This document shows, piece by piece, positions 1,371 to 18,729 of a stretch of 64,000 nucleotides of DNA; within the stretch, counting starts at the first letter, position 1; each line of letters begins with the position of its first letter. The notes beneath the pieces were generated by a model, which was given only the letters and a program-made list of their open reading frames with translations, was not told the DNA's origin and did not search any database. Both the position numbers and the translations under genes were made by a program. This DNA is from Candidatus Heimdallarchaeota archaeon. GTDB lineage: Archaea; Asgardarchaeota; Heimdallarchaeia; Heimdallarchaeales; Heimdallarchaeaceae. The stretch covers positions 32,001-96,000 of the forward strand of contig JAUVXV010000009.1 of assembly GCA_030603365.1 (NCBI GenBank). The letters are read 5' to 3'.

Positions 1371-1934
1371 ATGAGCATGTTCGGGTCTTTTTCCTCATGG
1401 TTGAGAGCTAAGCTAAGTAGAGAGCAGAAGGCTAAGATATTGATATTAGGTTTAGATGCAGCAGGAAAGACCACTTTGACCCGATTTATGAGGTTTGGAA
1501 AATTTGCAGAAAATCTTACACCAACCATAGGACAGAATATTGAATCTTTTGAATTTGAAGGTTGGACAATTACTGCTATTGATGTTGCTGGTCAATCACA
1601 TTTCCGATTTTTGTGGGAGGCACATTATCCTGGTTGCAGCGCAGTTATCTTTGTCATTGATGCTGCAGACATAGAAAGGTTACCTGAAGCCAGAGATGTT
1701 CTAAAAACACATGTATTTAATAATCCGTATATGGAAAATGTCCCATCTTTGATTATGGCCAACAAACAGGACTTGCCTGGAGCCGTGGAAGCCCCCTTAC
1801 TCATTCAGATGTTGGGTCTTCATCTTGATTTGAAGGATCGTACTTTTGCTGTGTTTGATACAAGCATTCTCCATGGTAAAGGAATTAAAGAAGCATTCAT
1901 TTGGTTAGTAAATGAACTTGATACACATTTATAA
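1371..1934 (+). CDS. Arf/Sar-like small GTPase
   Basis: G1 GLDAAGKTT, G2 PTIG, G3 DVAGQ, FVIDAAD, G4 ANKQDL. N-terminal hydrophobic/basic helix. Confidence 0.93.
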   Translation: MSMFGSFSSWLRAKLSREQKAKILILGLDAAGKTTLTRFMRFGKFAENLTPTIGQNIESFEFEGWTITAIDVAGQSHFRFLWEAHYPGCSAVIFVIDAADIERLPEARDVLKTHVFNNPYMENVPSLIMANKQDLPGAVEAPLLIQMLGLHLDLKDRTFAVFDTSILHGKGIKEAFIWLVNELDTHL

Positions 1935-1965
1935 TAAAATTCTCGTTTTTATTCTAAACTGTTTT

Positions 1966-3234
1966 CTATTTCTCTTTAAGAGTAAAATTAGAAACAAATC
2001 CACCTGAATTGTTGTTTGAGATAGGATCAAAATAAATTGATGATGTCTCTAACTGATCCTTTACCCCTTCATATAAATCAGGCACTTCTCTTGAGGTTAA
2101 TTTCTTTTGTTTCTTTAATCGACTTACTACTTCTGAGAGTTTAGAATTATTGTAATATGCTTTACTCAACGCATTTTTGAAAACACCTTCATTTTCTAAG
2201 TAATCTATAGAGTGCGTCACATAGGTAATCTCTGTTTCTTTGAGTAAACATCTGTAAAGATTTGAAACTAGTTTATTCTGATTTTCTGCAAAATGCCTAA
2301 GTTTTCCATACATGAGATTAGATGAAAAGATTGGTATAACCGCAGTTCTGGAATTCTGGGGTTCTACATAAACAGATGTATATTTGGTTTCTTGTCGGTG
2401 GTTAACAAATCCTGAAAATGAGGATTTCTGAACTCTGATTGCTTTAGATTTGCTTCTTTCCAGGGTTTTGTTGACCGCTTTAACCTGCATATCATTTTGA
2501 GCTATTACAGTTATAGGTACTTTATTTTGAGTTAATTCAGCGATATAACTAGCTACATCTCCCTTATCATTTGACATTACAAGAATGTTATCCTTCATTC
2601 CTAAAGACATTGATTTAATCCCAATAACTTGAATAGGAGATAAAATGCTGAAAAATCCTCGTCTATATGTGCTCATTTCACCTAATGGAGGAGCATAAGC
2701 TAAAGATTCTTCAACCCTTACAATAGATCTTTGAGTAAGCGTTGATATCTCTGAACTATTTACTTCGGAGGTTCCCTTAGCTAAAACATTACTAGCACCA
2801 TCAACAACACAAACATAATCCCCCGAATTGAAATCATCGTACCGCATAACATTTGCTGTTTGAACATCTTTTCCTAGTGCAATCCCTGTAGATGATTCAT
2901 GATCAACTCTAACTGTAGGTAAATCATCTAAGTTATCATCAAACTCCCTATTTACTACTTCAACTTCAATGAAATCATCAAACAATTCATGTTTCTTTGC
3001 AATAAACTCACGTTCATCAAAAATCTCTAAAAGTGAATCAAAATCAATTCTGTTGGTATTTACTTGTACCCACAAAGAATTCATTGGTTTTCTAAGATGG
3101 TCAATTAATTTTAGTACATAATCTAGTCCAAAATCATGTAACCAATGTTCAAGAAGAGTCCCAGAGTAACTGAATTTTCTTATTAACTCATGGAATATTC
3201 CTGCTGATTCCTCAGATTCATTATTAGAGTTCAT
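1966..3234 (-). CDS. NSUN6/RsmB-like protein with PUA domain; catalytic motifs degenerate (probable pseudo-methyltransferase)
   Basis: VQVNTNRI N-terminal motif and PUA domain (VRVDH...ALGKDV...FNSGDYVCVVD...VLAKG). MTase-fold remnants EPQNS (cf. DAPCS), YVTHS..LENEGV (cf. YSTCS..EENE) and C-terminal GGFV. Confidence 0.8.
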   Translation of the reverse strand: MNSNNESEESAGIFHELIRKFSYSGTLLEHWLHDFGLDYVLKLIDHLRKPMNSLWVQVNTNRIDFDSLLEIFDEREFIAKKHELFDDFIEVEVVNREFDDNLDDLPTVRVDHESSTGIALGKDVQTANVMRYDDFNSGDYVCVVDGASNVLAKGTSEVNSSEISTLTQRSIVRVEESLAYAPPLGEMSTYRRGFFSILSPIQVIGIKSMSLGMKDNILVMSNDKGDVASYIAELTQNKVPITVIAQNDMQVKAVNKTLERSKSKAIRVQKSSFSGFVNHRQETKYTSVYVEPQNSRTAVIPIFSSNLMYGKLRHFAENQNKLVSNLYRCLLKETEITYVTHSIDYLENEGVFKNALSKAYYNNSKLSEVVSRLKKQKKLTSREVPDLYEGVKDQLETSSIYFDPISNNNSGGFVSNFTLKEK

Positions 3235-3350
3235 TGTAGTAAGAAAATTGCGGTTTTTAGCTTTAAGAATATTAGTACAACTGTGAAATCACATTGACTA
3301 CTAAACAAAAAGTTGAAAAAAGAGCTCTTTTTATTCAACCAGAGAATAGA

Positions 3351-3869
3351 ATGGAACCATCTACCATCGTGAGACAAGCTGAACTTGGAGATATTAATGA
3401 TATTATCAAGATAAATAGAAAATGTCTCCCTGAAAACTACTCATTTGATTTCTTCTATAGAATATTGACTGAGTTTGGCTTTGCTTGTGCCGTAGGAGTT
3501 CACAAAGGAGAAGTAGTTGGTTATCTTCTTTCAAGAGTTGAAAGACCATTTGCAACTTTTCTAGGTTTAAACCCCTCTAAAGGTCATGTTATTTCAATAG
3601 CAGTTCTTCCTGAGCATAGAAGAAAGGGTTTTGGTAGTAAAATCATGAAATATGGTATGAAAAAACTCATAGAGAATAATGTTGAAACCATATATCTTGA
3701 AGTAAGAGTATCGAATGTAGCTGCAGTTGAAATGTATAAGAGACTTGGATACTACATCAAAAGAGAATTCAAGCACTATTATCGTGATGGAGAATCAGCT
3801 TTAGTTATGGAGTGGGGAAAGAAACAAGCTAACGAGGAAAAACAAGAAGAAATGACTGAAAATAGTTGA
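3351..3869 (+). CDS. ard1: N-terminal acetyltransferase, Ard1/RimI family (GNAT)
   Basis: INRKCLPENY, KGHVISIAVLPEHRRKGFG, LEVRVSNVAAVEMY, HYYRDGE. The ORF track starts at 3294; ATG at 3351 is more likely. Confidence 0.9.
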   Translation: MEPSTIVRQAELGDINDIIKINRKCLPENYSFDFFYRILTEFGFACAVGVHKGEVVGYLLSRVERPFATFLGLNPSKGHVISIAVLPEHRRKGFGSKIMKYGMKKLIENNVETIYLEVRVSNVAAVEMYKRLGYYIKREFKHYYRDGESALVMEWGKKQANEEKQEEMTENS

Positions 3870-3970
3870 TTCTTTAATTTCTGAATCAATCTTTATTTAC
3901 ATTTTTCAATATCAATTTCTATGTAATAATATTCTATATATACTAAAAACTAAGACAATAAATTGTCATT

Positions 3971-6900
3971 ATGACCATCCATTATTTAGATGAACCATCG
4001 ACCTCAGCTTCCATTTATTCCTTCCTAGCTGATGAAATCAAAGACTGGTTTACATCTAAGTTTCCTGGTGGTTTTACCCCCCCTCAGCTGTTTGCGATAC
4101 CATCTATCCACGAAAGAAGAAACACTCTGATTTTTAGTTCTACAGGTTCAGGAAAAACATTTGCAGCTTTTTTTGCAGCGATTAATGAGCTTTTCATTGA
4201 AGCCAAAGATGGGACATTGAAAGATGAGATATATGTTCTCTATATATCTCCATTGAAGGCATTAGGTAATGATATCAGAAAAAACCTCGAAGAACCTCTG
4301 CAAGGAATTCAAGAATTAGCTGCTTCTAATAATCTAGTAACTCCAAAGATTCGAGTTGGAGTAAGAACAGGAGATACTACTCAAGCAGAAAGGACTCAGA
4401 TGTTAAGAAAACCTCCTCACATCTTGATAACAACTCCTGAAAGCTTAGGTCTTATCATTACTTCTCCTAAATTCTCTGAACATCTTAAGAGTGTTCGATG
4501 GATAGTTCTTGATGAGATTCATGAAGTTAGTTCCAATAAAAGAGGAGTCTTTCTCTCATTGTGTCTAGAATATCTACAACTGGAACTAGCTAATAAACAA
4601 ATTACTCGAATAGGCTTATCTGCAACCCAAGCTCCGATAGAAGAAATAGCACGATTTCTTGTAGGATTAGATGATAAAGGAAAAGAAAATGAATGTTATA
4701 TAGCTAATTTACCCCCGCAGAGAAAACTAGATTTGGAAGTGAAAAGTCCAGTTAACGACCTACTCCATACCCCCTATATTATGATTCAAGAGGGAATTTA
4801 CAATCTTCTATCTGATTTGATTCTAGATCATGAAACATCTATAATATTCACGAACACGCGTAAAGGTGCTGAAAGTGTTTCGTTCAAGCTTAAGGAATAT
4901 CTTGGGGATGAATATGCTCCTTCAATTGCTGTTCATCATTCTAGTCTCTCAAGAGAAATAAGATTAGATGTAGAGGACAGACTGAAGAATAATGAGTTAC
5001 TTGCAGCTGTTACATCAACTTCTTTAGAACTAGGTATAGATATTGGTAGCGTTGAATTAGTTGCTCAAATAGGTTCACCAAAAACTGTTGCTAAATATCT
5101 TCAGAGAGTAGGGAGAAGCGGGCATTCATTAGATCGAATTGCAAAAGGACGATTAATAACAACTGATAGAGATGATGCTATTGAATGTGCAGTTTTGACT
5201 AAGAGTGCATATAGCAGAGAAATAGATAAGGTTCAGATACCCCATGATTGTTTAGATGTTCTAGCACAATTTTTAGTAGGAATATCCTTAATGAAAAGAT
5301 GGAATGTTGATGAAGCTTATACCATGATAAGAAAATCATATAACTATCATTCTTTGGATTTTGACGATTACCTGAAGGTTTTGGAATATCTGGGAGGTTA
5401 TAATCTAGAAGTTGAGGAAAGAAAAATTTACAGAAAAATTTGGTATGATCACAAAGAAAATGCTTTTGGCAAGAAGAAAGGTTCACGATTAACATTTTAC
5501 ACCAATCTCGGAACGATCCCAGAAAATGCAGATTATAGAGTTGAATTGGAAACCTATAGAACAAGATTAGGTTCATTATCTGAAGGTTTCGTGGAAAGAT
5601 TAACCCCAGGAGATGTTTTTGTTTTAGGGAGTCACACATATCAGTTCAAGAGAACAGTGGGATCAAGGGTTGTAGTTTCTGAAGCCTTTGGTAAACGTCC
5701 AACTATACCGAATTGGGTAGGAGAAGAACTTCCTAGATCATATGAGCTATCACAACAAATAGGACGGTTCATTGAAGCTGTATCTCAAAAAATCCAAAAA
5801 GACGATGAAAATTCAGTTATTGAATGGATAGAAAGATCTTTTCAGGTAGACAATGTTATAGCTAAAACTGTTGTACAATATGTTAAAGAACAATTGATGT
5901 TTCTTAACATTACACCTAGTGCTAAGAAGCTGCTGATAGAATCTTTTATCGATCCACAAGGAAGGACGATTCTTGTTTTTCACGCTTATTACGGAAGAAG
6001 AGTAAACGATGCTCTTTCTCGAGCGTTTGCATATAAAATAGGAATTCATCTTGATTCAGACATAGGTTCAGCTGTCAATGATAATGGCTTCGTCTTAATG
6101 TTACCTGTTGATAAGATAATAGATACTTCTATCATACCTGACTTACTGACAGTTGACAATTTAGAAGATACGCTCAAACAAGCAATAATAAACACAGAGC
6201 TTTTCTTGACTCGATTTAGACATGTTGCCAATAGATCATTAATGATTTTAAGAAGAAGCAGAGAAAGACATATTCCTGTTTCTCGGCAAACAATGTATGC
6301 AAGAAGAATATTCACTACATTAAGAAACATGGATGATTTCTGTGTAATCAAAGAGACATATAGAGAAATACTTCGAGATTATATGGATTTAACCAACAGT
6401 CTAATAGTTCTAGATAAACTGCAGAAAGGTGATTTTGAGTATTCGATTACCCCCTTATCAGATATACCCAGTCCTTTTGCTCATGGAATAGTACTATTAG
6501 GTATTTCTGATATTGTTCAAATCTCTGATAGAAGTGCTTTATTGAGAGAGCTTCATCAGCAAGTTCTGGCAAAAGTATTTGGCAAAGAGGGAACAAAGGA
6601 GATTTTATTCAATGAAGAACTAGTTACAAGAATATTCAATAATCGTAGCTATAGAAATGAAGCTCTTCCTATATCGTCTATAAAGCAATTAAGATCTGCT
6701 ATAAAATCTTTAGCCCCTATAAAGTCATTAGAAAGCGTTCACCCAAGTATATATCATTTAAGTATAGGAGACCTAAAACAGATACAAAGTTGGTCTTTAG
6801 CTCTTCATAATTCTGGAGAATTTATTGAGATTTATGTCAGTAAAGGTGATAGACGTTCAATACCTATTAATGATTTTCATCTTTATTGGAACTTATATGT

Positions 6901-9697
6901 GAAAACCATAGAGAAAAGTGAAATTGAAGATAATATTCTTGAAATTCTAAAAGAAAAATACCCTCTGTCTCTTAACAAACTATCAGAGGAATTAGATCTA
7001 CCCATAAAAACTTTACAAGTTCATCTTGAAAAACTAGAAAGAGCTATGCTGATAGTAAGAACCGAGTATGAACTATATGGAGGAAGAGTTAGAAGCAAAA
7101 TTTCCTTAGCAGAAAACGTTATCCCAAACCAATTGATGAAGGAAGCTAAGAAACTCGATCCTGAAGAATGTCTGAAGAAGGTTCTATTGAAATTTTTGAA
7201 AGTCAACGGTCCTTCAACTTTACATCAAATACTTGAATTTTTACGAATAGAAGAAGAGAAAATTACACGTGCTCTGTCTGAATTACAAAGTCAAAATCGT
7301 GTGCTAAAAGGTAGAATCATTGAATCTTCCTTAGAAGATCAATATATTAGACTTGAAGATAGAGAGCTTCTTAGAAACTTAAGTAATCGTAAACCTGATT
7401 CAATTATACTTACTCCAGAAGAGCTTAATTTTATTCATTATCTCTTTGCAGTTGATGAATTTCTAAAAGCAAAATTGATTGGTAAAGAAAATGTTCTGAA
7501 TCTATTGAACAACTTCGGAACCTTAGAGGATTTGAGTTCTCTTTCAGTCCGTATCAAAGATTATGAAGTTGATTGGATAAGGGATTTAATCGAGAAGAAA
7601 GAAATTATCCAAGGAAGATTTAGTCATAGAAGACTTGCATATGTTAGTAGAGAGAGGTTTTCTCACTATTATGTTGTTTACAGAGAACCATTTAAGTTAA
7701 CTAAAGTTGAAGAAAAGATTATATCAACCATACGAAAATATGGACCTTTAACCAAAAGAGAAATCAAAGAACTCACAGATTTAACAGATGATATCGTACA
7801 GGAAAGTTTAATGATTCTAGATAAAACTCTCTATCTAGTAAGAAAGTCTGTTACAACTGAAATTTTTGTACCTCGTCAGTTTGTCCCAAATGTTTATGAT
7901 ATTTCTGAGAGATATGTAACTGTTGACAAGCTTCCTTCTTTTGATAAAAGTCAAGAATTTATCTTGTATCAATCAATCAAATCTCTCGGTCCAGTTTCAC
8001 TAATCGAACTTACCCATCTGGTTGGTTTCAGATATAGCGATACAGAAAAAATCATCAAAAGTCTTCTCACAAAAAATAAGATTATTGAGAAGAAGCTCAC
8101 TGAAAGAGAGACTAATTATTATATGACTAAAGAAAGATTTGATGAGATCGTAAAGGTAAAGACAGATCTAATCAATATAGCTTATAGTGAAGAAGAGCAA
8201 ATAGTCATCTTACCTAAGGATGATCCTTTCACCAAATTAGGAATGAGATTGCACTTACGAGATATTTATGGTGAAGGTCAGATAGATCCAATAATATTAG
8301 ACGGGGAGATGGTTGGTTCAATTGAATATCGGTTACACAGAGGACAATATCTTCAAATTTACGATTTAAAACTAAAAAATTCAATAATATATAATTCAAT
8401 CTTGTTGCAGAAAATAGCTGCAGAACTTGTAAGCTACACAAGAAAAATACATAGAGTACTCAGTTTTCAAATTGAAGATATCAATAGTAAATCAGTCCTA
8501 TCAAAAAGTAATCAGTTTATTAGAGAAACATTTGTGAAAACAGGTTTTAAGCTAATAAAAGATACATTAATTGGTGGAGATACTGTTACAAAGGTATTTT
8601 CACGAAGAACAATTGATAGAAACATTATGGAAAATCTTTGGTTGAAAAAGCAGAGTCCAACATTGAATACCGAGAATTTGTTACAAATGATTAATCATTT
8701 TGGATTCATAGAACTCAAAGAAATTGTATCAAGGTATCCAGAGAATATGGTTTCAATAATTATTTATCTTTTGAATCAGCTTCTGAAAAATAGAGATATT
8801 ATTTGCCAAAATAACATTTTTTATTCTATTCCATTTGCTAGATACAGGAAAAGTGGTTTAAGAACTAGAAGGAAGATGAAGGATGAATCAGCACAGATAT
8901 ACAATAGGATAAAGAAAGGAATTGCTAATAATCAGAACCTTCTGAATAGCTGGGAAGGAACAGCATCTACTTTTAAAGCTGCTCTGAAAATTCTTGAGGA
9001 AAACATGCTTATCGGTGTTGAATCTCTAAGTAATCTGTATGAACCCCAAGAGTATTGGGATATTGATAGGTTTATCCCAGAGATTGACAAAGATATTTCT
9101 GAAATTAGAAAGGAGTATATTTTTGATATCTTGGGAAGTTTTGGTATCGCTTCTGAGGAACAGATTTCTGCGCGAGCAGTAATTCCTGGAGTTATGACTA
9201 AAATTAAAATTAAAGAAGTTCTAGCTAGTTTAATTGATGAAGAAAAAATCATAGGTGGCAGGTTCGTCGAGAACGATACAAGATTTTTTTATATAACCCA
9301 AGAAAATTATGATGCCCTAATAATGTTTGAGAAGAAAGAAGATAGTAAAGTGGAATATTCGAAGAAAGAAGAAAGAGAAAGATATTACCTGCTTTACCCA
9401 AAAGATTTTGCTACTATTGTATTGAAAACTAATCTTTACGAACAGTTTGGGATATCAGATGATAATTATGTTGTTATACTTGATCAGAAAGTAGCTGCCC
9501 AATGTAATGTTGATAACATCAATCAAAAACGATTGATAGTGAAGAATGTTATATTAGCACCTTGGATACATGCAGATAGTTCTCTAAATTATGTAGTAAA
9601 TGCTATCGAAACAATCCCCACTCTTGAAAATATGACTGTCAATACTATTGTAGTTGAGAAGATAAATGGTATCCCATCACACTCGTTGGTGAAATAA
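3971..9697 (+). CDS. lhr: Lhr-family SF2 ATP-dependent helicase with a very long C-terminal extension of repeated winged-helix/AlkZ(HTH_42)-like modules (1908 aa)
   Basis: Q motif TPPQ, STGSGKT, ISPLKAL, DEIH, SAT, HHSS, SLELGIDIG, QRVGRSGH, NLGTIP and IPNWVGE make up the Lhr core (about aa 1-870). About 1000 further residues carry repeated GPxT/S wHTH units. Confidence 0.92.
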   Translation: MTIHYLDEPSTSASIYSFLADEIKDWFTSKFPGGFTPPQLFAIPSIHERRNTLIFSSTGSGKTFAAFFAAINELFIEAKDGTLKDEIYVLYISPLKALGNDIRKNLEEPLQGIQELAASNNLVTPKIRVGVRTGDTTQAERTQMLRKPPHILITTPESLGLIITSPKFSEHLKSVRWIVLDEIHEVSSNKRGVFLSLCLEYLQLELANKQITRIGLSATQAPIEEIARFLVGLDDKGKENECYIANLPPQRKLDLEVKSPVNDLLHTPYIMIQEGIYNLLSDLILDHETSIIFTNTRKGAESVSFKLKEYLGDEYAPSIAVHHSSLSREIRLDVEDRLKNNELLAAVTSTSLELGIDIGSVELVAQIGSPKTVAKYLQRVGRSGHSLDRIAKGRLITTDRDDAIECAVLTKSAYSREIDKVQIPHDCLDVLAQFLVGISLMKRWNVDEAYTMIRKSYNYHSLDFDDYLKVLEYLGGYNLEVEERKIYRKIWYDHKENAFGKKKGSRLTFYTNLGTIPENADYRVELETYRTRLGSLSEGFVERLTPGDVFVLGSHTYQFKRTVGSRVVVSEAFGKRPTIPNWVGEELPRSYELSQQIGRFIEAVSQKIQKDDENSVIEWIERSFQVDNVIAKTVVQYVKEQLMFLNITPSAKKLLIESFIDPQGRTILVFHAYYGRRVNDALSRAFAYKIGIHLDSDIGSAVNDNGFVLMLPVDKIIDTSIIPDLLTVDNLEDTLKQAIINTELFLTRFRHVANRSLMILRRSRERHIPVSRQTMYARRIFTTLRNMDDFCVIKETYREILRDYMDLTNSLIVLDKLQKGDFEYSITPLSDIPSPFAHGIVLLGISDIVQISDRSALLRELHQQVLAKVFGKEGTKEILFNEELVTRIFNNRSYRNEALPISSIKQLRSAIKSLAPIKSLESVHPSIYHLSIGDLKQIQSWSLALHNSGEFIEIYVSKGDRRSIPINDFHLYWNLYVKTIEKSEIEDNILEILKEKYPLSLNKLSEELDLPIKTLQVHLEKLERAMLIVRTEYELYGGRVRSKISLAENVIPNQLMKEAKKLDPEECLKKVLLKFLKVNGPSTLHQILEFLRIEEEKITRALSELQSQNRVLKGRIIESSLEDQYIRLEDRELLRNLSNRKPDSIILTPEELNFIHYLFAVDEFLKAKLIGKENVLNLLNNFGTLEDLSSLSVRIKDYEVDWIRDLIEKKEIIQGRFSHRRLAYVSRERFSHYYVVYREPFKLTKVEEKIISTIRKYGPLTKREIKELTDLTDDIVQESLMILDKTLYLVRKSVTTEIFVPRQFVPNVYDISERYVTVDKLPSFDKSQEFILYQSIKSLGPVSLIELTHLVGFRYSDTEKIIKSLLTKNKIIEKKLTERETNYYMTKERFDEIVKVKTDLINIAYSEEEQIVILPKDDPFTKLGMRLHLRDIYGEGQIDPIILDGEMVGSIEYRLHRGQYLQIYDLKLKNSIIYNSILLQKIAAELVSYTRKIHRVLSFQIEDINSKSVLSKSNQFIRETFVKTGFKLIKDTLIGGDTVTKVFSRRTIDRNIMENLWLKKQSPTLNTENLLQMINHFGFIELKEIVSRYPENMVSIIIYLLNQLLKNRDIICQNNIFYSIPFARYRKSGLRTRRKMKDESAQIYNRIKKGIANNQNLLNSWEGTASTFKAALKILEENMLIGVESLSNLYEPQEYWDIDRFIPEIDKDISEIRKEYIFDILGSFGIASEEQISARAVIPGVMTKIKIKEVLASLIDEEKIIGGRFVENDTRFFYITQENYDALIMFEKKEDSKVEYSKKEERERYYLLYPKDFATIVLKTNLYEQFGISDDNYVVILDQKVAAQCNVDNINQKRLIVKNVILAPWIHADSSLNYVVNAIETIPTLENMTVNTIVVEKINGIPSHSLVK

Positions 9698-12037
9698 ATG
9701 ACAATAACACAGTATTCCCTAACATTAGATCAGCTGGCTAAATATCTTGTAGAGAAACAAAATATAGACAGTGAGTATAAGGGTGTCAATTATAGCCATG
9801 CAATTGCTACAATTAACAATATTATTGTGTTCCAAGATATCGAATCACTGTTCATACGAATGAGGACTTATTCTTCGGGTCTTATCCATTCACTGATAAA
9901 AAACAAACATCTCGTACATGCTCCATTTAAAGAGGGAAAACTAGTTTATATCGGAAGAGAAAACCTACCTATTTTCAGTAAAATATATGTCAAAGATACA
10001 ATTCAATACAAAAAACCATTGACGAAAACTGTTCTAGAATTCCTTGAGGAAGAAGGTTCTTCAACACGTCAAAAAATAATAGAAAAATTCGAAATTTCAA
10101 AAGAAGATGTAATGGATATTCTTATTGAACTTCGAACAAACTTTCAAATCTTTATGTTTTATGATGGAACTTCATGGACAATATTTAGTAGTAAATTACT
10201 CCTAGCAGATTCTAAGATGAGCAAAGCCTCAGCCACTTCTGAACTTATTTTCACTGTTATCAAAAATTTTGGTCCTATAACTGTCCCTCAAATCATAAAA
10301 ATTCTAAATATGGGTGGAGGACGAGTAAGTACAAGTATTATCGAACTTTACGAAAATAAGAGACTTGTTAGAGGTAATTTTATAGAAAATTCAACATATG
10401 AAGCATTTTTAGCTTCTGATGAACTTGAATATTTACAATCCTATTTAGAAAATCTTTCACAGAAGCAAGAAAAGGTTCTAGAAATACTTCCAAATACAGA
10501 TCCCTTGGCTGAATATTGGTCTTCAGCTGATTTTCTGAATCTAGACGAGGTACAAGATGAATTAGTTCTATTTAATGGAAAACCAATTTGTTCCTTCGAA
10601 TATAAAGTAGATGGAGATAAATTACAGGTTTCTAATCTTGTTAAAACTGCTGAATTCACGAACCTTGAGGTTGAAATCAGAAACAAAATACAAGAGTTTG
10701 CAGAAAACAAAGGTAAAATTCTTGTCTTCCCAGAACTTCAATCAGAGTCCATAGAAAATCAATCAAAGATTTTAGCAGAAATTCTATCTAAAAGGGGTTA
10801 TCAAAAACGAACTTCAGGTTTAATATCACATATCACCGCTAAACCTCTAAGTGATGATGAAGACCAATTATTCTTTTTGAGAGATGTATTTCCACTTCTG
10901 TTAGATTTCCAATTCTTGAGTCCAAGATATAGTTTTTCTTCAAAAAAAGCTGTCGTAAATGGATTATCTTCATTAGGAGTACCTCTATCAACCAATTCTG
11001 TACTAACAAGAATTTCATCACATCAGAAGATAAGCTTTGATGATATGATTATTGATAAACAGATAGTCACTGGGAAATATGGTGCTTTTTACAGAGGAAA
11101 CATTGTATCAAACGATTATATGATGTTCGCCAAACTAAGTCCTCCAAGACACTATGGGGTATTGGAAGAAAGAGTTCTTAAACTAATTCAGCAAAAGGAG
11201 CGAATAAATTTCTCTCAACTTCAGTCTTCTTTGAACTTATCTAATCGTGTCTTATTATCTGCTCTGCAAAGATTGGAAATTGCTCATGAAATTGTTCAAA
11301 CAAAATCGGTTTCAAAGCAAATAGTTTGGGAACTAACCTCAAAATTCCTCAGTAAAACAAATGTGAAATCTGTTGATTCACAAAGAGAAGCTTGGTTAGA
11401 TGTTCTCTACCGCATTTTTTCAACTAACTTACCTTTGAGTATAACACAACTAGCAAATTTTACAGGTTTATCTAATACGCAGATAGAGGTGTATATCAAG
11501 GAATTAATTGCATCTAAAGGAATCATTTCTGGAAAATTCTTTGAAGATGTGAATGAGGTTCAATTTACATCAAAGGAAATTGAAAAGAAGATTATGGGTT
11601 ATATTTATCAAAAAGAAGAAGACCATATCTCTGAGGATGTTATTATAACCTATCTATCACGTAATGATCCTTTACTAACTCTATACAGAACATATCTCCT
11701 TAAACGATTTCGAATACGATCATTATTTTCAAGACCCTTACCAACAGAATATGGTGAAATAATTTTAATGAATGGAGAACCCATTGCAGCTTTACATGTA
11801 AAAAAAGCTGAAAAAATCGAGTTTGTAAACAATATCGAAATACTTCCAGAGTTCACCGACTCACACACTCTTATGCTAATACTTAGTTCAATTCAAGAAT
11901 ACCTAATCAAGACAAAAAAAGATCACGATAGGATATTGAGGATTAAGCAAATAAATGGCACATCTTTAACATCAGAAAGTGGTAAAGAATATGTCAATCT
12001 TTTAAATAATATGCACTTTGATTACCAGATTCTCTAA
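9698..12037 (+). CDS. Tandem winged-helix/AlkZ(HTH_42)-like repeat protein, paralogous to the Lhr C-terminal extension
   Basis: Two ~390-aa modules share SLxxR, wHTH (FGPITVPQI; NLPLSITQL), GxF (RGNFIE; SGKFFE), LPxxDP (ILPNTDP; YLSRNDP) and L.NG.PI motifs with the Lhr tail. ATG directly follows the Lhr TAA. Confidence 0.75.
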   Translation: MTITQYSLTLDQLAKYLVEKQNIDSEYKGVNYSHAIATINNIIVFQDIESLFIRMRTYSSGLIHSLIKNKHLVHAPFKEGKLVYIGRENLPIFSKIYVKDTIQYKKPLTKTVLEFLEEEGSSTRQKIIEKFEISKEDVMDILIELRTNFQIFMFYDGTSWTIFSSKLLLADSKMSKASATSELIFTVIKNFGPITVPQIIKILNMGGGRVSTSIIELYENKRLVRGNFIENSTYEAFLASDELEYLQSYLENLSQKQEKVLEILPNTDPLAEYWSSADFLNLDEVQDELVLFNGKPICSFEYKVDGDKLQVSNLVKTAEFTNLEVEIRNKIQEFAENKGKILVFPELQSESIENQSKILAEILSKRGYQKRTSGLISHITAKPLSDDEDQLFFLRDVFPLLLDFQFLSPRYSFSSKKAVVNGLSSLGVPLSTNSVLTRISSHQKISFDDMIIDKQIVTGKYGAFYRGNIVSNDYMMFAKLSPPRHYGVLEERVLKLIQQKERINFSQLQSSLNLSNRVLLSALQRLEIAHEIVQTKSVSKQIVWELTSKFLSKTNVKSVDSQREAWLDVLYRIFSTNLPLSITQLANFTGLSNTQIEVYIKELIASKGIISGKFFEDVNEVQFTSKEIEKKIMGYIYQKEEDHISEDVIITYLSRNDPLLTLYRTYLLKRFRIRSLFSRPLPTEYGEIILMNGEPIAALHVKKAEKIEFVNNIEILPEFTDSHTLMLILSSIQEYLIKTKKDHDRILRIKQINGTSLTSESGKEYVNLLNNMHFDYQIL

Positions 12038-12083
12038 TATACAAAGGAGATATCTTTTTTATTTACAAAGACAAAGTATTTCT

Positions 12084-12938
12084 ATGAAACGTCAAGCAGC
12101 ATATGCAGGTTCATTTTATGATGGACGAGAAAAAAATCTTATAGAATCAATAGAGAAATCTTTTAAGAGTTCTCTTGGACCTGAAAGTTTGCCTGAAGGT
12201 ATTAAATATCCTAACTCTCCTCAACCCTTCTTCTTGGTACCTCATGCTGGATACATGTATAGTGGTCCAGTAGCCGCTAGTAGTTATCTTGAAATGAGTA
12301 AATTTGCAGCTCCAGAGACAGTGATAATCCTTGGGCCTAATCATACGGGATTTGGTGCAGAAATTGGTGTTCCTGACAAAGTAACAGAGTGGGTTACACC
12401 TTTAGGTTCAGTTAAGGTCAATCATGAATTTATAGACAAATTGATGGAAATTAACAGCCTTGTTAGCAAAAGTGATTCTTCACATGTTAAAGAACATTCA
12501 ATTGAAGTACAACTGCCTTTTCTTCAATATATTCTAGAAGAACCCTTCCAAATAGTTCCAATTGCAATGAAGAATCAGAGTTATGATGCAAGTATGGTAC
12601 TGGGGGAGACAGTTGGAAAACTAATACAGAAAGAAAATGTTGTCGTTCTAGCAAGTAGTGACTTTACTCATTTTGAAACACATGAAAGAGCGAAGAATAA
12701 AGATTCTAAAGTTCTTGATGCTATTGAAAAAATGGATGCGAAATCAATGTATGACATAAAATTTAAGCTCAATGTAACTATGTGTGGATATGGTCCCATT
12801 GCTGCAACAATAGAAACTGCAAAGAAGACTGATCGAGTAAAAAGTAAGATACTAAATTATGCAACCTCTGGCGATGTTTCAGGAGATAGAAGTCAGGTAG
12901 TTGGGTATGGTTCTGCTATGTTTTATAAAGAAGATTAA
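12084..12938 (+). CDS. MEMO1-family protein (AmmeMemoRadiSam system protein B)
   Basis: RQAAYAGSFY, PHAGYMYSG, GPNHTG, EHSIEVQLPFLQ, ASSDFTH, MCGYGP, VVGY. ATG at 12084 preferred over 12018. Confidence 0.95.
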   Translation: MKRQAAYAGSFYDGREKNLIESIEKSFKSSLGPESLPEGIKYPNSPQPFFLVPHAGYMYSGPVAASSYLEMSKFAAPETVIILGPNHTGFGAEIGVPDKVTEWVTPLGSVKVNHEFIDKLMEINSLVSKSDSSHVKEHSIEVQLPFLQYILEEPFQIVPIAMKNQSYDASMVLGETVGKLIQKENVVVLASSDFTHFETHERAKNKDSKVLDAIEKMDAKSMYDIKFKLNVTMCGYGPIAATIETAKKTDRVKSKILNYATSGDVSGDRSQVVGYGSAMFYKED

Positions 12939-12990
12939 TGATTGTCCCCATAGAAACCAATATTAGCGCAATTAAACAATAACTACAAAA

Positions 12991-13527
12991 GTGATTCATT
13001 TGTCTAAGAGAAACTATATTACAAATAAGATCGTTCTAATAGGAGATGCAAGAGTTGGAAAGACCTCTCTAGTTAGAAGATTCGTTACTAATATGTTTGA
13101 TCCTTCCTATAAAATAACTCTGGGTACAACAATTATGAAAAAAGAACTTGAATATCTTACTAACAATGTGATACTAGCAATTTGGGACATTGGAGGACAA
13201 GAGGTTTTCAGACAAATTAGAAGTAAATACTTCTTTGGAAGTAAAGGGGCTCTTGCAATTTGTGATGCTTCTAACCTTGAATCTTATAACAATCTATCTT
13301 CTTGGGTTGAATCCTTCAGAAAAGAAGTTGGAGATAAACCTATCATTTTTCTAGCAAATAAATGTGACTTAAAGAATTTAGAAGTAACTGAAGAACATAT
13401 GAAGAAAATAGTGGAAACTTACAAAAATACAGAATTCATGTTTACTTCAGCGAAAGATGGAACTAATACTGAAAAAGCCTTTACTAATCTTACTAGACTC
13501 ATGGTCGAAGAAGAGGATATAATCTAA
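12991..13527 (+). CDS. Rab-like small GTPase
   Basis: KIVLIGDARVGKTSL, YKITLG, IWDIGGQE, NKCDL, TSAK. No C-terminal Cys tail. Confidence 0.93.
   Translation: MIHLSKRNYITNKIVLIGDARVGKTSLVRRFVTNMFDPSYKITLGTTIMKKELEYLTNNVILAIWDIGGQEVFRQIRSKYFFGSKGALAICDASNLESYNNLSSWVESFRKEVGDKPIIFLANKCDLKNLEVTEEHMKKIVETYKNTEFMFTSAKDGTNTEKAFTNLTRLMVEEEDII
13457..13527 (+). repeat. Direct repeat copy 1 (last 71 bp of the Rab-like gene)
   Basis: Ungapped alignment to 14734-14804 with 59/71 identities, counted by eye. Confidence 0.9.
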
Positions 13528-13627
13528 TTCTCAATCTAATTGAATTACAAATCAATTGAACAACTATCTTTTTATATTTCTTTGTGTACTTATAAATGAT
13601 TCATTAATTGAATCAGAGAGTGGAATT

Positions 13628-14692
13628 ATGAAGAAAAACAAAAATATAATTAGCCTACTTTTAGTTTTCTTAATGGTATCATTTAGTTTTATAGCAATAC
13701 AAGATTTAGTATCTAGCCGTATTAACCCTTGCAAATTTAAAGGTAGAGTAACGGATAACTATCTTAACTTCTATCTTGGGGGTGTCAAAGTGACCTGTAG
13801 AAAAGGAGGTATGATATACGATGTTGATTATACAGATGCTAATGGCTACTACGAAGTCTGGACAGATCCCTTGTTTTCAAATACATATGTAAACCTGATT
13901 TTTGAGTATTCAGGGTATAATACAAAAACAGTTGGCAAAACTGCAAAACCTGGAGAAACTATAACCTATAGTCCTAAACTAATACCCCCTTTGGATGCTG
14001 ATGGTTGTTACGAAACTCGGAAATTTAAGACTGAATTTGCAAATTTTGACACAACACATTGGCCGGATTATTACCCTCCGTTCTGGCATTCGGATTCAGA
14101 TTTTCTATCTATTTACGAATTGACAGAGATATATCAACCATCTACTGACACATTCAAGGTAAAATATTACGCTTATGTTGAATGGTGGGAATACTTAGAC
14201 GGATGGCCCAATAATGCATGGTTGATAAGAGTTGAAAGACTGGTAGATACTCTTGGAGGTATTTGGTCCAATTGGTTAACTGAAGACTATCTATGGGAAG
14301 AAGAATATTATTACGAAGAGACATATTATCATGACTATATTTGTTTCTATGGTGAAAGAAGTGAAACATATGATATTGTTGATCCCAGAGAATGGGGTGG
14401 TTTACGTCATGGTCTAGTATCACCCTACCTAGATGGATATCATTATCGATATACCTATATAACAGGTATCACCTTACGTGTTCACTTAGGCACACCTTAT
14501 CAATATCCAGCTCCATATGTTCCGTTACCTGATCAGACAGACCCAGACCAATATTTCTTTTACGCAAATGCGTACACTAAAATTACTTTGTTAGCTTACA
14601 CATCGCCAACCAATACATTGAAACCTTGGTTCTGGGGAGGAAGTATTTCACATACAAATCCTCTTTATGGACCGCGTATTTATACCCCTTAA
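13628..14692 (+). CDS. Secreted orphan protein with a carboxypeptidase-regulatory-like beta-sandwich and an aromatic-rich C-terminal domain
   Basis: Signal peptide MKKNKNIISLLLVFLMVSFSFIAI. KGRVTD...GGVKV...TDANGYY...SGYNT pattern. C-terminal half rich in Y, W and P. Confidence 0.65.
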   Translation: MKKNKNIISLLLVFLMVSFSFIAIQDLVSSRINPCKFKGRVTDNYLNFYLGGVKVTCRKGGMIYDVDYTDANGYYEVWTDPLFSNTYVNLIFEYSGYNTKTVGKTAKPGETITYSPKLIPPLDADGCYETRKFKTEFANFDTTHWPDYYPPFWHSDSDFLSIYELTEIYQPSTDTFKVKYYAYVEWWEYLDGWPNNAWLIRVERLVDTLGGIWSNWLTEDYLWEEEYYYEETYYHDYICFYGERSETYDIVDPREWGGLRHGLVSPYLDGYHYRYTYITGITLRVHLGTPYQYPAPYVPLPDQTDPDQYFFYANAYTKITLLAYTSPTNTLKPWFWGGSISHTNPLYGPRIYTP

Positions 14693-14723
14693 TAAACCTC
14701 TCTTCTATTTTTTTCTTTTTTTT
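14693..14723 (+). terminator. Archaeal oligo-T terminator
   Basis: Long pyrimidine/T tract immediately after the stop of 13628-14692. Confidence 0.55.
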
Positions 14724-14733
14724 CCTACAAAAT

Positions 14734-14804
14734 ATGAAACTAATGCTGAACAAGTCTTTACTAATCTTACTCGACTCATGGTTGAAGAATCGGACCTGAT
14801 CTAG
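14734..14804 (+). pseudogene. Direct repeat copy 2: orphan duplicate of the Rab-like gene 3' end
   Basis: Translates ETNAEQVFTNLTRLMVEESDLI*, against GTNTEKAFTNLTRLMVEEEDII* in the intact gene. The stop is in the same position and there is no upstream coding part. Confidence 0.85.
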
Positions 14805-14821
14805 CTTAAATTCTAAACCTC

Positions 14822-15289
14822 TTATATTTCATTTCTTAGAAGATATAGTGTGAGAGTAATTTCTCCTAAACATCCAAGTTCATTTAATTTTTCGAAGTAA
14901 ACTGCTTTACCCTTGTCTAATTCTTGTTTACTAAGCCCGGGTTCTGCTCCACCAAAGATGAGTAAGATGCTTTTCCCACTGTTATAGGATTTCGCAACTT
15001 CTTTATAATCAAATATTTCTTTTGAAAAAGGTTTTTTTATGAAGAGATAGATTTCATCAGGATGAACTAATTCGATAGCATCATCAATGCTTTGAAGATA
15101 AAGAAGATTGGCTTGTTTGGAATAAGCAAGTTTCTGAGCAATTGGAACACCTGTAGTGGCTGCGGTTCCTGCTGCTTTTGATAAGATAATATCTCTTGCC
15201 CCAAGTCCTAAGGCTATTTTAACGAATTCTCTACAGTGATTTAAGCTACTAAAATTATGAAGTTGAACGAAAATTTTTCCTGTACTCAT
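14822..15289 (-). CDS. DUF2122-family protein (SPOUT-like fold, often annotated RecB-family nuclease)
   Basis: IFVQLHNFSS...AAGTAATTGVP...DAIELVHPD...LIFGGAEPGLSKQELDKG matches this archaeal family as I recall it. Confidence 0.7.
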   Translation of the reverse strand: MSTGKIFVQLHNFSSLNHCREFVKIALGLGARDIILSKAAGTAATTGVPIAQKLAYSKQANLLYLQSIDDAIELVHPDEIYLFIKKPFSKEIFDYKEVAKSYNSGKSILLIFGGAEPGLSKQELDKGKAVYFEKLNELGCLGEITLTLYLLRNEI

Positions 15290-15386
15290 TTGATAATGTT
15301 TATGATTAGTAATAAAAAAAGCTAACTATCGAAACTTGAACCAAGTAAAAAAATTTTTAAAACTTACATATATGAAGAAGATAATT

Positions 15387-15461
15387 GCCCCGATAGTATA
15401 GCGGCTAGTATTGTGGATTGTGGCTCCATAGAGGCAGGTTCGAATCTTGCTCGGGGCACCA
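15387..15461 (+). tRNA. tRNA-His (GUG), CCA encoded
   Basis: Acceptor stem GCCCCGA/TCGGGGC, D arm GTATAGCGGCTAGTAT, anticodon stem GTGGA/TCCAT with loop TTGTGGC, T arm GCAGG-TTCGAAT-CTTGC, discriminator A plus CCA. AT-rich TATA-like box about 25-30 bp upstream. Confidence 0.96.
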
Positions 15462-15545
15462 CTTCTTTTTCTAAACAGCATTCTCAAGTAAATTAGGAAA
15501 GTTTAAAGCGGAGTAATTTTCAGTTTTAGATGTCGAAGTGATAAT

Positions 15546-16004
15546 ATGCCTTGGGTAGAAGAAGTTATTTTAGGAGGAACTTTTGACCATCTCCATCCTG
15601 GGCATAGGGCTCTTCTAGAAGCTGCTAAGAGTTTTGGATCATTTGTTCGAGTAGGGTTGACAACTGATGAGTTTGCTAAGAGTTTGAGGCGGAGTGATCC
15701 AAATATTGAACTAATGCAATCCTATAAAACTAGAGAAAAGAAACTAAATGAATATCTGATTTTCAGAAATTTTGAAAGATTTGAAATAGTTAAGATTGAT
15801 CATAGATACGGTTTTGCTTTGACAGCAGAACAAGCTGAAGGAATTGTAGTAACTGAGGAAACGTATCCAACAGCTGTTGATATAAACAAACTTCGTGCAT
15901 TAGAAGGGTTGGATCAATTCCTAATTTTAGTTATACCTTTTGTTTATGATGAATCAGGTATAATCATTAGCTCGAGAAGGATTAGACAACAGCTTGCTGA
16001 ATAA
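15546..16004 (+). CDS. coaD: Phosphopantetheine adenylyltransferase, archaeal/eukaryotic type
   Basis: GGTFDHLHPGH, VGLTTDEF, IVVTEET, INKLR..GL, ISSRRIR. Confidence 0.92.
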   Translation: MPWVEEVILGGTFDHLHPGHRALLEAAKSFGSFVRVGLTTDEFAKSLRRSDPNIELMQSYKTREKKLNEYLIFRNFERFEIVKIDHRYGFALTAEQAEGIVVTEETYPTAVDINKLRALEGLDQFLILVIPFVYDESGIIISSRRIRQQLAE

Positions 16005-16052
16005 GAAATCACAAACAAACTTAACCAAAGATTAGAGGAGTGATAACTAGGT

Positions 16053-16583
16053 TTAATCTCTATTTTCAATGCTTGTGAGTATCTGGTCACCCATTGCAAG
16101 AAATGCATCAGCGACATTTGTTCCATTTTTAGCAGAGGTTTCAATGAACCCTATGCAACCAGAATCTTCAGCAAATTTCTTACCTTCTTCAGTAGATACA
16201 TCTCGTAAATCTTCTAAATCGTTTTTATTACCAACAAGCATAAGCATAATGCGAGGACTTTCATTTTGAGCTTCTTGTATCCATGTCTTAAGATTTTCAA
16301 AAGATTGACGTCGAGTAATATCGTATGTTACAAGAGCTCCTAAACTGCCTTTGAAAAAGATTTGTCTCATTGAAGCAAAACGGTCCTGACCTGCAATATC
16401 CCACAATTGAAGGCATATTCTTGTGTCTTTGATTGTTTCAAATCTTGAATATGGTTCCATTCCTATTGTCATTAAATATCCAGCTTGGAATTTATTGTGG
16501 ATGAACCTTTGTACAAGACTTGTTTTCCCAACAGCCCCATCTCCAAGTAATAAAATCTTGAATGTATATTTGTAGCTAGTCAT
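16053..16583 (-). CDS. Rab-like small GTPase
   Basis: FKILLLGDGAVGKTSL, TIG, LQLWDIAGQDRF, YDIT, GNKNDL, ETSAK. Confidence 0.95.
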   Translation of the reverse strand: MTSYKYTFKILLLGDGAVGKTSLVQRFIHNKFQAGYLMTIGMEPYSRFETIKDTRICLQLWDIAGQDRFASMRQIFFKGSLGALVTYDITRRQSFENLKTWIQEAQNESPRIMLMLVGNKNDLEDLRDVSTEEGKKFAEDSGCIGFIETSAKNGTNVADAFLAMGDQILTSIENRD

Positions 16584-16779
16584 CTTGCTTTCAAAAACTT
16601 CTTACATTTATTGCTTATAATTATTTTGATGTTTCCCGCATTCAAGAGAGCTTTAATTTTGTTCTAATTCTCCGTCTATTTCAAGAGAAACAACCTTAAA
16701 ACGATTTTTTTGAAAGCTGTGATGTTTTCATGGGTTTGTGCATATTAACGAAACCTTTTAACATTGTTGAATTTTTTTC

Positions 16780-18729
16780 ATGTTAGTTCAAATGATTGAC
16801 CCAGATAATCTAGATTTCAAAGAATTAGGTTTTCATGCAGGACTAGAAGTACACCATCAAATACGTACAAAGAGAAAACTTTTTTGCAACTGTCCTCCAA
16901 TACTTGAAGAAGATCCTGAAAATATGGAATATAGTTTCTATAGATACTTCAGACCTGTTCTAGGGGAAATGGGAGATTTTGATCCTGGTATGCTAGTCGA
17001 ATTTGAAAAAGGGTATAAAGTTATTTACCTTGCAAATGAGAAAAATACTTGTACATATGAAATGGATGAGACTCCACCTTTCTTTCCAGATATGGAAGCT
17101 ATTGAAAAGGGGATCATTTTATCTGCATACTTCGATTGTTCTGCTTATGCTGAAGAGGTTGTTGTAAATAGGAAACAATATCTTGATGGTTCAATCACAA
17201 CTGGTTTTCAACGCACTTTTATCTCAGCTCGAGATGGTTGGGTTCCTGTAAATGGCAAAAAAGTCCGAATCACAAATGTGCATATTGAAGAAGATGCTGC
17301 TCGAAGAGTAAATTGGGATGACACTTCTAGTAGAACGGTTTACTTCAATCTTGATAGATTGGGTATGCCTTTGACTGAAATTATCACAGAATACACAGAT
17401 GTAGACACACCTGAAGAATTAATTGAAACAGCTAAGCAAATTGGAAGAGTTTTAAGAATAAGCAAAATAGGAATAAGAGGGTTGGGAGCAGCTAGACAAG
17501 ATGTAAATATAAGTATAACTGGGGGAGATAGGGTCGAGCTAAAGGGAGTACAAAATTTAGATCACTTTGACATAATGTGTCGTCATGAAGTTGTGCGACA
17601 GTACACTTTGATTGAGATCAAAGAAGAAATGCTGAAGAGAGAAATAAAAGAAGAGGATTTTGAACACACCTATGTTGATATTAGTCACCTCTTCAATGAT
17701 GACAAGAAATATTTTGCATCTATATTTCCAAAAATGAAGGGTCTTTTTGGATTAGAAGTTCAGCCAAATAAGGACTTTGGAGAAGAGATCTTTGAAAAGA
17801 GTATGTTAATTACTGGTCTTCCGAGGGCTAATCATTTCCACAGTGATGAATTGGATGAGAATGCTGTTAGGAAACGATCAAAATATCCAAGCAGTTTACC
17901 GATCAATAATGAAGTTATCACTAAAATTTTCACAATACTAAATCCAAAAGAGTCAGATGCTTTGATTATTATTGCAGGTCCAGAAAAAAGTGCAATACAT
18001 GCAATGAAAAAGGTTGTAGAACGAGTTAAAATGGCTTTAAAAGGTGTCCCTCAGGAAACTCGAAGGTATGTATATGACGGAAACTCTGAATTCTTGAGAG
18101 TGATTCATGGTAAAGATAGAATCTATCCTGATACTGATACTCCACCAGTAGTCATATCTCTAGAGAAAATTTTCGACATAATCGGTAAAATTGGAAAACG
18201 TCCTTGGGAAGTTTACGTTGAATTGAATGAAAAATATCAATTTGACCAAAACCATGTTGATTTGTTAATAAGGGATGAGAAACTTGATAAATTCTACAAC
18301 ATGGTTGATGATCTAGGTTTAGACGAACATTTAACCTACAGGCTTCTAATAGATCTACCTAGAGAAAAAAGAAGAAAAAACATTAAGATTACTGAAAAAT
18401 TAATTGAAAAACTTGCTCTGTTATTCTCTAATAATACAATTCTACTCGAACAACTAGAGTTAGTTCTCCCTATACTACTTGAAAATCCAAATATCAGTGA
18501 TGAGGAACTCAAAGTAAAAATAGGCTTCAAAGAAATAACATCTGAGCAATTAGATAAGATAATTGATAATCAGATAAAACTTTTTGGTAAAGATAATTTT
18601 GTTTCTTCAGAAGATAAAAAGCGCAATCTCCCAAGAATTGTTAATCAAGTTTTAAATGAATGTAATTATTCTATTAAAGGAGAACAAGTTGCGAATAAAA
18701 TAAATTCACTTTTGAAGGAGGTAATTTAA
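16780..18729 (+). CDS. gatE: Glu-tRNA(Gln) amidotransferase subunit E
   Basis: GLEVHHQI..KLFCNCP, RKQYLDGSITTGFQRT, IEEDAAR, LDRLGMPLTEI, ARQDVNISI, RVELKGVQ, GVPQETR, RIYPDTD. Confidence 0.95.
   Translation: MLVQMIDPDNLDFKELGFHAGLEVHHQIRTKRKLFCNCPPILEEDPENMEYSFYRYFRPVLGEMGDFDPGMLVEFEKGYKVIYLANEKNTCTYEMDETPPFFPDMEAIEKGIILSAYFDCSAYAEEVVVNRKQYLDGSITTGFQRTFISARDGWVPVNGKKVRITNVHIEEDAARRVNWDDTSSRTVYFNLDRLGMPLTEIITEYTDVDTPEELIETAKQIGRVLRISKIGIRGLGAARQDVNISITGGDRVELKGVQNLDHFDIMCRHEVVRQYTLIEIKEEMLKREIKEEDFEHTYVDISHLFNDDKKYFASIFPKMKGLFGLEVQPNKDFGEEIFEKSMLITGLPRANHFHSDELDENAVRKRSKYPSSLPINNEVITKIFTILNPKESDALIIIAGPEKSAIHAMKKVVERVKMALKGVPQETRRYVYDGNSEFLRVIHGKDRIYPDTDTPPVVISLEKIFDIIGKIGKRPWEVYVELNEKYQFDQNHVDLLIRDEKLDKFYNMVDDLGLDEHLTYRLLIDLPREKRRKNIKITEKLIEKLALLFSNNTILLEQLELVLPILLENPNISDEELKVKIGFKEITSEQLDKIIDNQIKLFGKDNFVSSEDKKRNLPRIVNQVLNECNYSIKGEQVANKINSLLKEVI

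Follow-up and report, generated by a model that had tools for sequence, protein, structure and literature searches.

What does a protein composed entirely of modules resembling the DNA glycosylases AlkZ and YcaQ do immediately behind a giant helicase? The question is raised by a 64,000-nucleotide (nt) stretch of DNA from a Candidatus Heimdallarchaeota archaeon (GenBank assembly GCA_030603365.1, contig JAUVXV010000009.1, positions 32,001 to 96,000), hereafter the window, where the gene for a helicase of the Lhr family is directly abutted by a second, motor-less gene, here called the partner. The reading we favour, at a probability of roughly 0.55, is that the partner is an accessory subunit, co-translated with the helicase and probably non-catalytic, which provides it in trans with additional modules for DNA binding and assembly; we infer that the two proteins associate physically. 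All coordinates are positions within the window, and the open reading frames (ORFs) were taken from ORF calling; lengths are in amino acids (aa). The pair and its parts are as follows.

3971..9697, plus strand: giant Lhr helicase gene (P0001), a 1908-aa ORF with matches to Pfam DEAD, Helicase_C, WH_Lhr, DEAD_assoc, AlkZ-like and AlkZ-rel and to NCBIfam PRK13767
3971..6595, plus strand: Lhr-Core, residues 1-875 (RecA1, RecA2, first winged helix WH1, domain 4), with Pfam matches within residues 36-837
6596..7405, plus strand: linker and partial module T1, Lhr residues 876-1145; a beta-hairpin and two winged helices, barrel missing; counterpart of winged helices WH2-WH3 in the bacterial Lhr C-terminal domain
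7406..8590, plus strand: module T2, Lhr residues 1146-1540; complete AlkZ/YcaQ fold, the best-conserved module of the tail
8591..9694, plus strand: module T3, Lhr residues 1541-1908; an extra, more divergent AlkZ-like module that stops just past the barrel and does not include the terminal helix segment
9698..12037, plus strand: partner gene (P0002), 779 aa; two complete AlkZ/YcaQ-fold modules
9698..10852, plus strand: module ParN, partner residues 1-385
10853..12034, plus strand: module ParC, partner residues 386-779

The 1908-aa ORF has the full Lhr-Core in its expected order, namely DEAD, Helicase_C, WH_Lhr and DEAD_assoc (domain 4), with E-values of 1e-15 to 1e-49, all above the Pfam cut-offs, and it scores 1062 bits against the PRK13767 cut-off of 849. 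The superfamily 2 (SF2) helicase motifs GSGKT, DEIH, SAT and QRVGRSGH are intact. The core is 70-91% identical to its orthologues and the length of the whole protein is near-constant in Heimdallarchaeaceae (1906-1908 aa). It is the sole Lhr of this genome, holding the single DEAD_assoc match in it. An earlier note on this DNA, made from the letters alone, had proposed the two-gene layout with the Lhr stop directly abutting the partner ATG, and the ORF calls and the junction sequence bear it out; the motifs quoted there (GRFSHRRLAYV, APFKEGKLVYI, ILPKDDP, LLYPKDF, ILPNTDP, YLSRNDP, IILDGE, LFNGK and LMNGE) are all present in the translations.

Behind the core follows a tail of about 1030 aa, in which Pfam AlkZ-like matches residues 982-1111 (28.0 bits, cut-off 25.9) and AlkZ-rel matches residues 1202-1292 (31.8 bits, cut-off 26.5). 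Both halves of the partner resemble this tail: ParN (partner residues 1-395) and ParC match Lhr residues 1168-1527 with BLASTP E-values of 1e-14 and 1e-11, respectively. The modules also match one another, with E-values of 6e-5 for ParN and ParC, 5e-6 for T1 and T2, and 1e-4 for T2 and T3. Profile-profile alignments of the orthologue sets (hhalign) gave probabilities of 99.1% for T2-ParN, 98.1% for ParN-ParC, 97.6% for T2-ParC and 96.7% for T3-ParC, each covering about 325-342 columns from end to end, while T3 against T2 gave 60.6%. By these sequence comparisons the module repeat is far above chance. T1 (about Lhr residues 915-1145) aligns with only the first 60% or so of a module. Of the "about five modules" counted in the earlier note, four are thus complete (T2, T3, ParN and ParC) and the fifth, T1, is a partial one in which the barrel is missing.

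Structure prediction identified what these modules are. The partner model, built from 22 orthologues, has a mean predicted local distance difference test (pLDDT) score of 85 and consists of two halves that resemble each other, with a disordered linker between them (residues 376-389). Its top solved matches in Foldseek are the C-terminal domain of Mycobacterium smegmatis Lhr (7LHL), DNA-bound YcaQ/AlkX (9ZD6) and AlkZ (5UUJ), with E-values of about 1e-10 to 1e-11. The model of the Lhr tail (17 orthologues, pLDDT 72.6) is divided into three units, of which T1 is a hairpin with two winged helices and without a barrel, and T2 and T3 are full modules. The C-shaped fold of three winged helices plus a beta-barrel at the C-terminus, about 370-410 aa in size, is present in these predicted structures. 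For T3, whose secondary-structure elements follow the same order as those of T2, an AlkZ-like fold is suggested by profile similarity and secondary structure only. The C-terminal domain of bacterial Lhr comprises WH2-WH3 followed by WH4-6 and a barrel (PMC8053096). T1 and T2 together are this bacterial-type domain, two winged helices and then an AlkZ-like unit of three winged helices and a barrel, as in the tail that defines the bacterial bLhr-HTH group; T3 is one module beyond it, and the partner adds two more. A failure of the modules to match HTH_42/AlkZ had been named beforehand as a possible refutation, and a match was found in both fold comparison and profiles: the ParN, ParC and T2 profiles align with stand-alone AlkZ-like proteins of Heimdallarchaeia at 91-98%.

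The partner is far less easily recognised by sequence. Its Pfam AlkZ-like match is sub-threshold (PF06224, 20.7 bits, gathering cut-off 25.9), its other Pfam matches are generic winged-helix ones (HTH_24 and a weak MarR), and sequence comparison with the PDB, made both with the single protein and with a profile, yielded chance winged-helix matches only, so that in the PDB the link to AlkZ comes from fold comparison alone. The HTH_24 and MarR matches, the Joint Genome Institute (JGI) name 'GbsR (MarR family)' and an invariant GLSNTQxE that resembles a recognition helix would suit a multi-winged-helix transcription regulator of the MarR/GbsR type, controlling lhr or a damage regulon. We consider this very improbable, as the winged helices sit inside two complete AlkZ-type folds, which is the architecture of DNA-damage enzymes and not of repressors; moreover, the gene lies downstream of, and is coupled to, its supposed target, and its 779 aa include no ligand-binding domain.

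A complete glycosylase fold raises the question of whether the modules are enzymes. AlkZ/YcaQ enzymes require one of two motifs, (Q/H)x(Q/D) or (H/Q)x(S/T)(D/E), on the strand preceding the SLxxR helix (PMC9040887, PMC13303869); in Escherichia coli YcaQ it is Q45-I-D47. The catalytic register was set by alignment to 11 YcaQ-like and 19 AlkZ-like stand-alone proteins of Heimdallarchaeia, since hhalign against the single sequences of E. coli YcaQ and the E. coli Lhr C-terminal domain (Lhr-CTD) was too weak to fix registers. In the profile alignments and among the orthologues, neither form of the canonical motif was found in any module. ParN reads F-Q-D-x-E-S, where Q is replaced by L, K or S and D by E or H among orthologues, and T2 reads L/I-E-D-L-S-S, where E is once replaced by A and D by E or N. 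ParC has G-[IV]-P-L and T3 has variable residues at this site. Aligned to the stand-alone families, the ParN, T2 and ParC profiles have Q, E or S where the first catalytic residue would be; the second is missing, and the loop after it is shorter by 6 residues. From these alignments the canonical active site has been lost, as it has in bacterial Lhr, and the glycosylase activity hinted at in the earlier note is correspondingly weakened.

The stand-alone AlkZ-family genes of Heimdallarchaeia, on the other hand, retain Q[IL]D or GLH[AS]T. This genome contains two such genes, which encode a 414-aa YcaQ-like protein with a canonical Q-L-D and a 392-aa AlkZ-like protein reading GGLHSTSQ (loci L042, G000:C9:77591-80935, and L041, G000:C16:53730-57626), so that canonical candidates for a crosslink glycosylase exist apart from the Lhr pair. 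The Asp of LPxxDP, conserved in all four full modules, was considered as a special feature of these modules and rejected, being a general HTH_42 signature (VLSPFDP in YcaQ, LLPDLDP in the stand-alone genes).

It may still be asked whether the partner (and perhaps T2 or T3 as well) has DNA glycosylase activity at a non-canonical site and acts in the same pathway as Lhr, first unhooking or excising a lesion before the helicase unwinds, with no stable complex between the two. The complete fold, the LPxxDP signature kept in all four modules, and the Gln and Glu that mostly occupy the first catalytic position in ParN and T2, respectively, are compatible with this, and the E. coli Lhr-CTD has been reported as a uracil glycosylase although it has no QxQ motif (PMC10953399). 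Yet the Gln and Glu vary among orthologues, the missing second residue and the shortened loop apply to the same site, and the genome already has its canonical stand-alone enzymes. Asp-1536 of E. coli Lhr (GLDWG, near the C-terminus) likewise appears to have no conserved equivalent: an alignment that could be made by eye only places SGL-I of ParN and TL-I-GG of T2 at this position, and T3 does not have the segment. We therefore regard an active glycosylase as unlikely.

Support for an accessory subunit made together with the helicase comes from the junction between the two genes, which reads ...TTGGTGAAATAA followed immediately by ATG, and from a candidate ribosome-binding element upstream of it.

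9688..9692, plus strand: Shine-Dalgarno-like GGTGA within the final codons of Lhr (Leu-Val-Lys-stop), 5 nt upstream of the partner ATG

The arrangement TTGGTGA(A/T)(A/T)TAA directly followed by ATG is kept in most of 24 orthologous junctions, and in one lineage (L024) the abutting stop and start are replaced by an 8-nt overlap, ATGATTGA. In more distant pairs the genes overlap by 4 and 22 nt or are separated by 43-146 nt. In the window and in most close relatives the partner's reading frame continues that of Lhr (9698-3971 = 5727 = 3 x 1909), which invites the view that both genes effectively encode a single protein, a fusion of about 2690 aa produced by readthrough of the TAA or only recently split; in another Asgard family a third full module is indeed fused to Lhr, which is 2344 aa long there. 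However, the Lhr stop codon is retained in 24/24 full junctions, an ATG and a Shine-Dalgarno-like element are present for the partner itself, and the distant pairs include genes that are out of frame as well as the overlapping and spaced ones. Nor was any protein of about 2690 aa found among 1.84 billion representatives, and we give the single-protein explanation hardly any credence. In two genomes the partner itself is interrupted, by division into two ORFs (534 and 255 aa) in one and by one in-frame TAA in the other (G050:C2:57191-59382 and G013:C140:4301-6625, respectively).

The partner family is small. It comprises 34 homologue clusters, all of about 780 aa, from Heimdall metagenome-assembled genomes and annotated as 'hypothetical', and the partner profile matches 52 of the 1.84 billion representatives. 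The earlier note had stated beforehand that a partner not syntenic with long Lhr elsewhere would count against the pairing, and the synteny was found. An Lhr of about 1908 aa lies directly upstream in 29/29 Heimdallarchaeaceae loci that have upstream DNA (30 loci in all), two closed Ca. Heimdallarchaeum genomes being among the 29. Beyond this family, six divergent two-module proteins (704-814 aa) each come right after a long Lhr (6/6), of 1916, 1946, 1723, at least 1640, 1752 and 1806 aa, and the flanking genes are otherwise unrelated. The five of these partners that could be aligned for comparison are 14-44% identical to one of them. By their source names, distant partner-type proteins belong to Kariarchaeaceae and to other Heimdallarchaeota.

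In a survey of 83 Heimdallarchaeia genomes, families f1 (30/30), f2 (1/1) and f4 (10/12) have the partner, and no other family has Lhr ORFs of 1640-1941 aa. Where Lhr is core-only, at about 940-1018 aa (f3, f5, f6 and f7; 39 genomes), no partner match was found in 36, and the remaining three gave winged-helix matches of about 55-80 residues only. The association of partner and long Lhr is thus without exception among the families surveyed. It must be noted that a phylum-wide search with the profile of the close family, scoring two candidates per genome, missed the divergent partners of sister families, which were recovered by a profile of distant partners.

The age of the arrangement can be read from a tree of the modules, where T2, T3, ParN and ParC form four separate clades, each with members from Heimdallarchaeaceae, from the L031/L032-type loci and from the Kari-type. 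Kari-type Lhr C-terminal regions are sister to the T3 clade proper, and the deep branches among the four clades are long, with Shimodaira-Hasegawa-like approximate likelihood ratio test (SH-aLRT) values of 80-93. As each of the four clades holds all three lineages, the four-module set predates them and is old and maintained.

How do these genes compare with known systems? Long bacterial proteins of the bLhr-HTH type are exemplified by M. smegmatis Lhr (1507 aa; PDB 5V9X for the core, 7LHL for the C-terminal domain) and E. coli Lhr (1538 aa). Compared with these, the Heimdall protein carries T3 as a second full module in the same chain, and two more are encoded separately by the coupled gene. 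Bacterial Lhr proteins are encoded by single genes with no conserved neighbour (PMC8301817) and form homo-tetramers, whereas the Heimdall pair is known here from genes and single-chain models. The interstrand-crosslink glycosylases AlkZ and YcaQ (AlkX) of the HTH_42 superfamily (PDB 5UUJ, 9ZD6) are monomeric enzymes of about 370-410 aa that possess the catalytic motif and the longer loop after it, whereas the Heimdall modules occur in tandem or fused to a helicase. Among archaea, aLhr2 of Methanomassiliicoccales likewise carries an AlkZ-like C-terminal extension, but with one HTH_42 domain and with no module-only neighbour reported (Hajj et al. 2021, PMC8301817), so the Heimdall pair differs both in having more modules and in having a partner. 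The few Asgard aLhr2 sequences found in that study were given without a description of their tails or of any partner.

Long Lhr proteins of other Asgard families (1898-2353 aa) share with Heimdall the core, T1 and multiplied AlkZ-like modules, but all of their two or three full modules are in cis, with no partner detected beside them. The 2344-aa Lhr at L035:1044-8078 (P0038) has T1 and three full modules, the last of which scores much higher against Pfam AlkZ-like; in the one context examined an HD-domain gene follows and no partner. ORFs of the P0038 type, 2247-2353 aa long, are found in genomes G002-G004. Literature searches, including the Lhr phylogeny paper (PMC8301817), turned up neither multiplied modules nor a partner composed of modules only, in agreement with the earlier note's statement that the arrangement had not been described. 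Long Lhr with an HTH_42 tail is known; the multiplied modules together with a coupled module-only partner gene appear to be undescribed.

In the mechanism that we propose for the accessory subunit, Lhr is a 3'-5' SF2 helicase with a bacterial-type tail (T1 and T2) and one extra AlkZ-fold module (T3). From one mRNA, coupled translation would yield an active helicase together with a subunit that has no motor and consists of two pseudo-glycosylase modules (ParN and ParC), and the two would associate by contacts between modules, similar to the ones that hold together the tetramer of mycobacterial C-terminal domains. In M. smegmatis Lhr, tetramer formation is nucleated by the homologous domain, whose putative DNA surface is occluded (PMC8053096). 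The modules would most likely serve as DNA-binding and assembly surfaces, and the complex may thereby add surfaces for repair at crosslinked, stalled-fork or RNA:DNA substrates. Net charge and isoelectric point, computed for each module, revealed no clear DNA-binding signal.

Several observations weigh against this proposal. The co-occurrence of partner and long Lhr represents one or a few evolutionary events and not many independent ones. Adjacency within Heimdallarchaeaceae is weak evidence by itself because the whole neighbourhood is colinear (see below); the distant pairs, with their differing flanks, are the stronger evidence for synteny. The other Asgard families with two or three full modules in cis, next to which the partner was not found, indicate that a trans subunit is not obligatory for long Lhr. 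Finally, loss of the motif does not exclude catalysis, given the activity reported for the E. coli domain.

One may speculate further that one Lhr chain and one partner chain form a pseudo-tetramer, where T2, T3, ParN and ParC rebuild the bacterial four-module cylinder with a single motor. This is a tentative idea and on balance a doubtful one. If true, a homo-oligomer would have been replaced by internal duplication and a trans subunit, and the modules would be free to specialise, e.g. one in recognition of lesions or branches and the others in assembly.

The role of the AlkZ-like domain in Lhr is debated, the proposals being oligomerisation, lesion recognition and glycosylase activity, and the mycobacterial report (tetramer, occluded DNA surface) and the E. 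coli report (uracil glycosylase) are hard to reconcile. A lineage where the domain has been multiplied and placed partly on a separate subunit, with the canonical site lost in all copies and the whole kept across three Heimdallarchaeia families, amounts to a natural dissection of this role, and it points to scaffold and DNA-handling roles for the domain. As a two-protein system it also allows motor and modules to be mixed in vitro. The Heimdall lineage is among the closest archaeal relatives of eukaryotes.

The neighbourhood of the pair is largely colinear across about 25 Heimdallarchaeaceae genomes.

1371..20121: colinear block of Arf GTPase, NSUN6-like/PUA, GNAT, Lhr, partner, Memo, Ras GTPase, DUF2122 nuclease, cytidylyltransferase and GatE

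The Memo-like gene lies at 12018-12938 and, when started at TTG, overlaps the last 20 nt of the partner. It follows the partner in most of Heimdallarchaeaceae and not in the distant pairs.

Two other Lhr loci deserve mention. P0055 (1938 aa) is an Lhr with an intein (LAGLIDADG domain) inside the helicase region, at about residues 369-863, and its tail consists of two T1-like winged-helix units and not of full modules. At L045 Lhr seemed to be divided naturally between a gene for the core (846 aa) and one for the tail (1046 aa); this was considered as evidence for a tail acting in trans and was rejected, as a 10-N scaffold gap at the junction marks it as an assembly artefact. The long Lhr at this locus (L045:4693-11141) is preceded by a metallophosphoesterase gene, and a 575-aa multi-winged-helix protein is also encoded upstream; metallophosphoesterase is a known neighbour of core-only Lhr.

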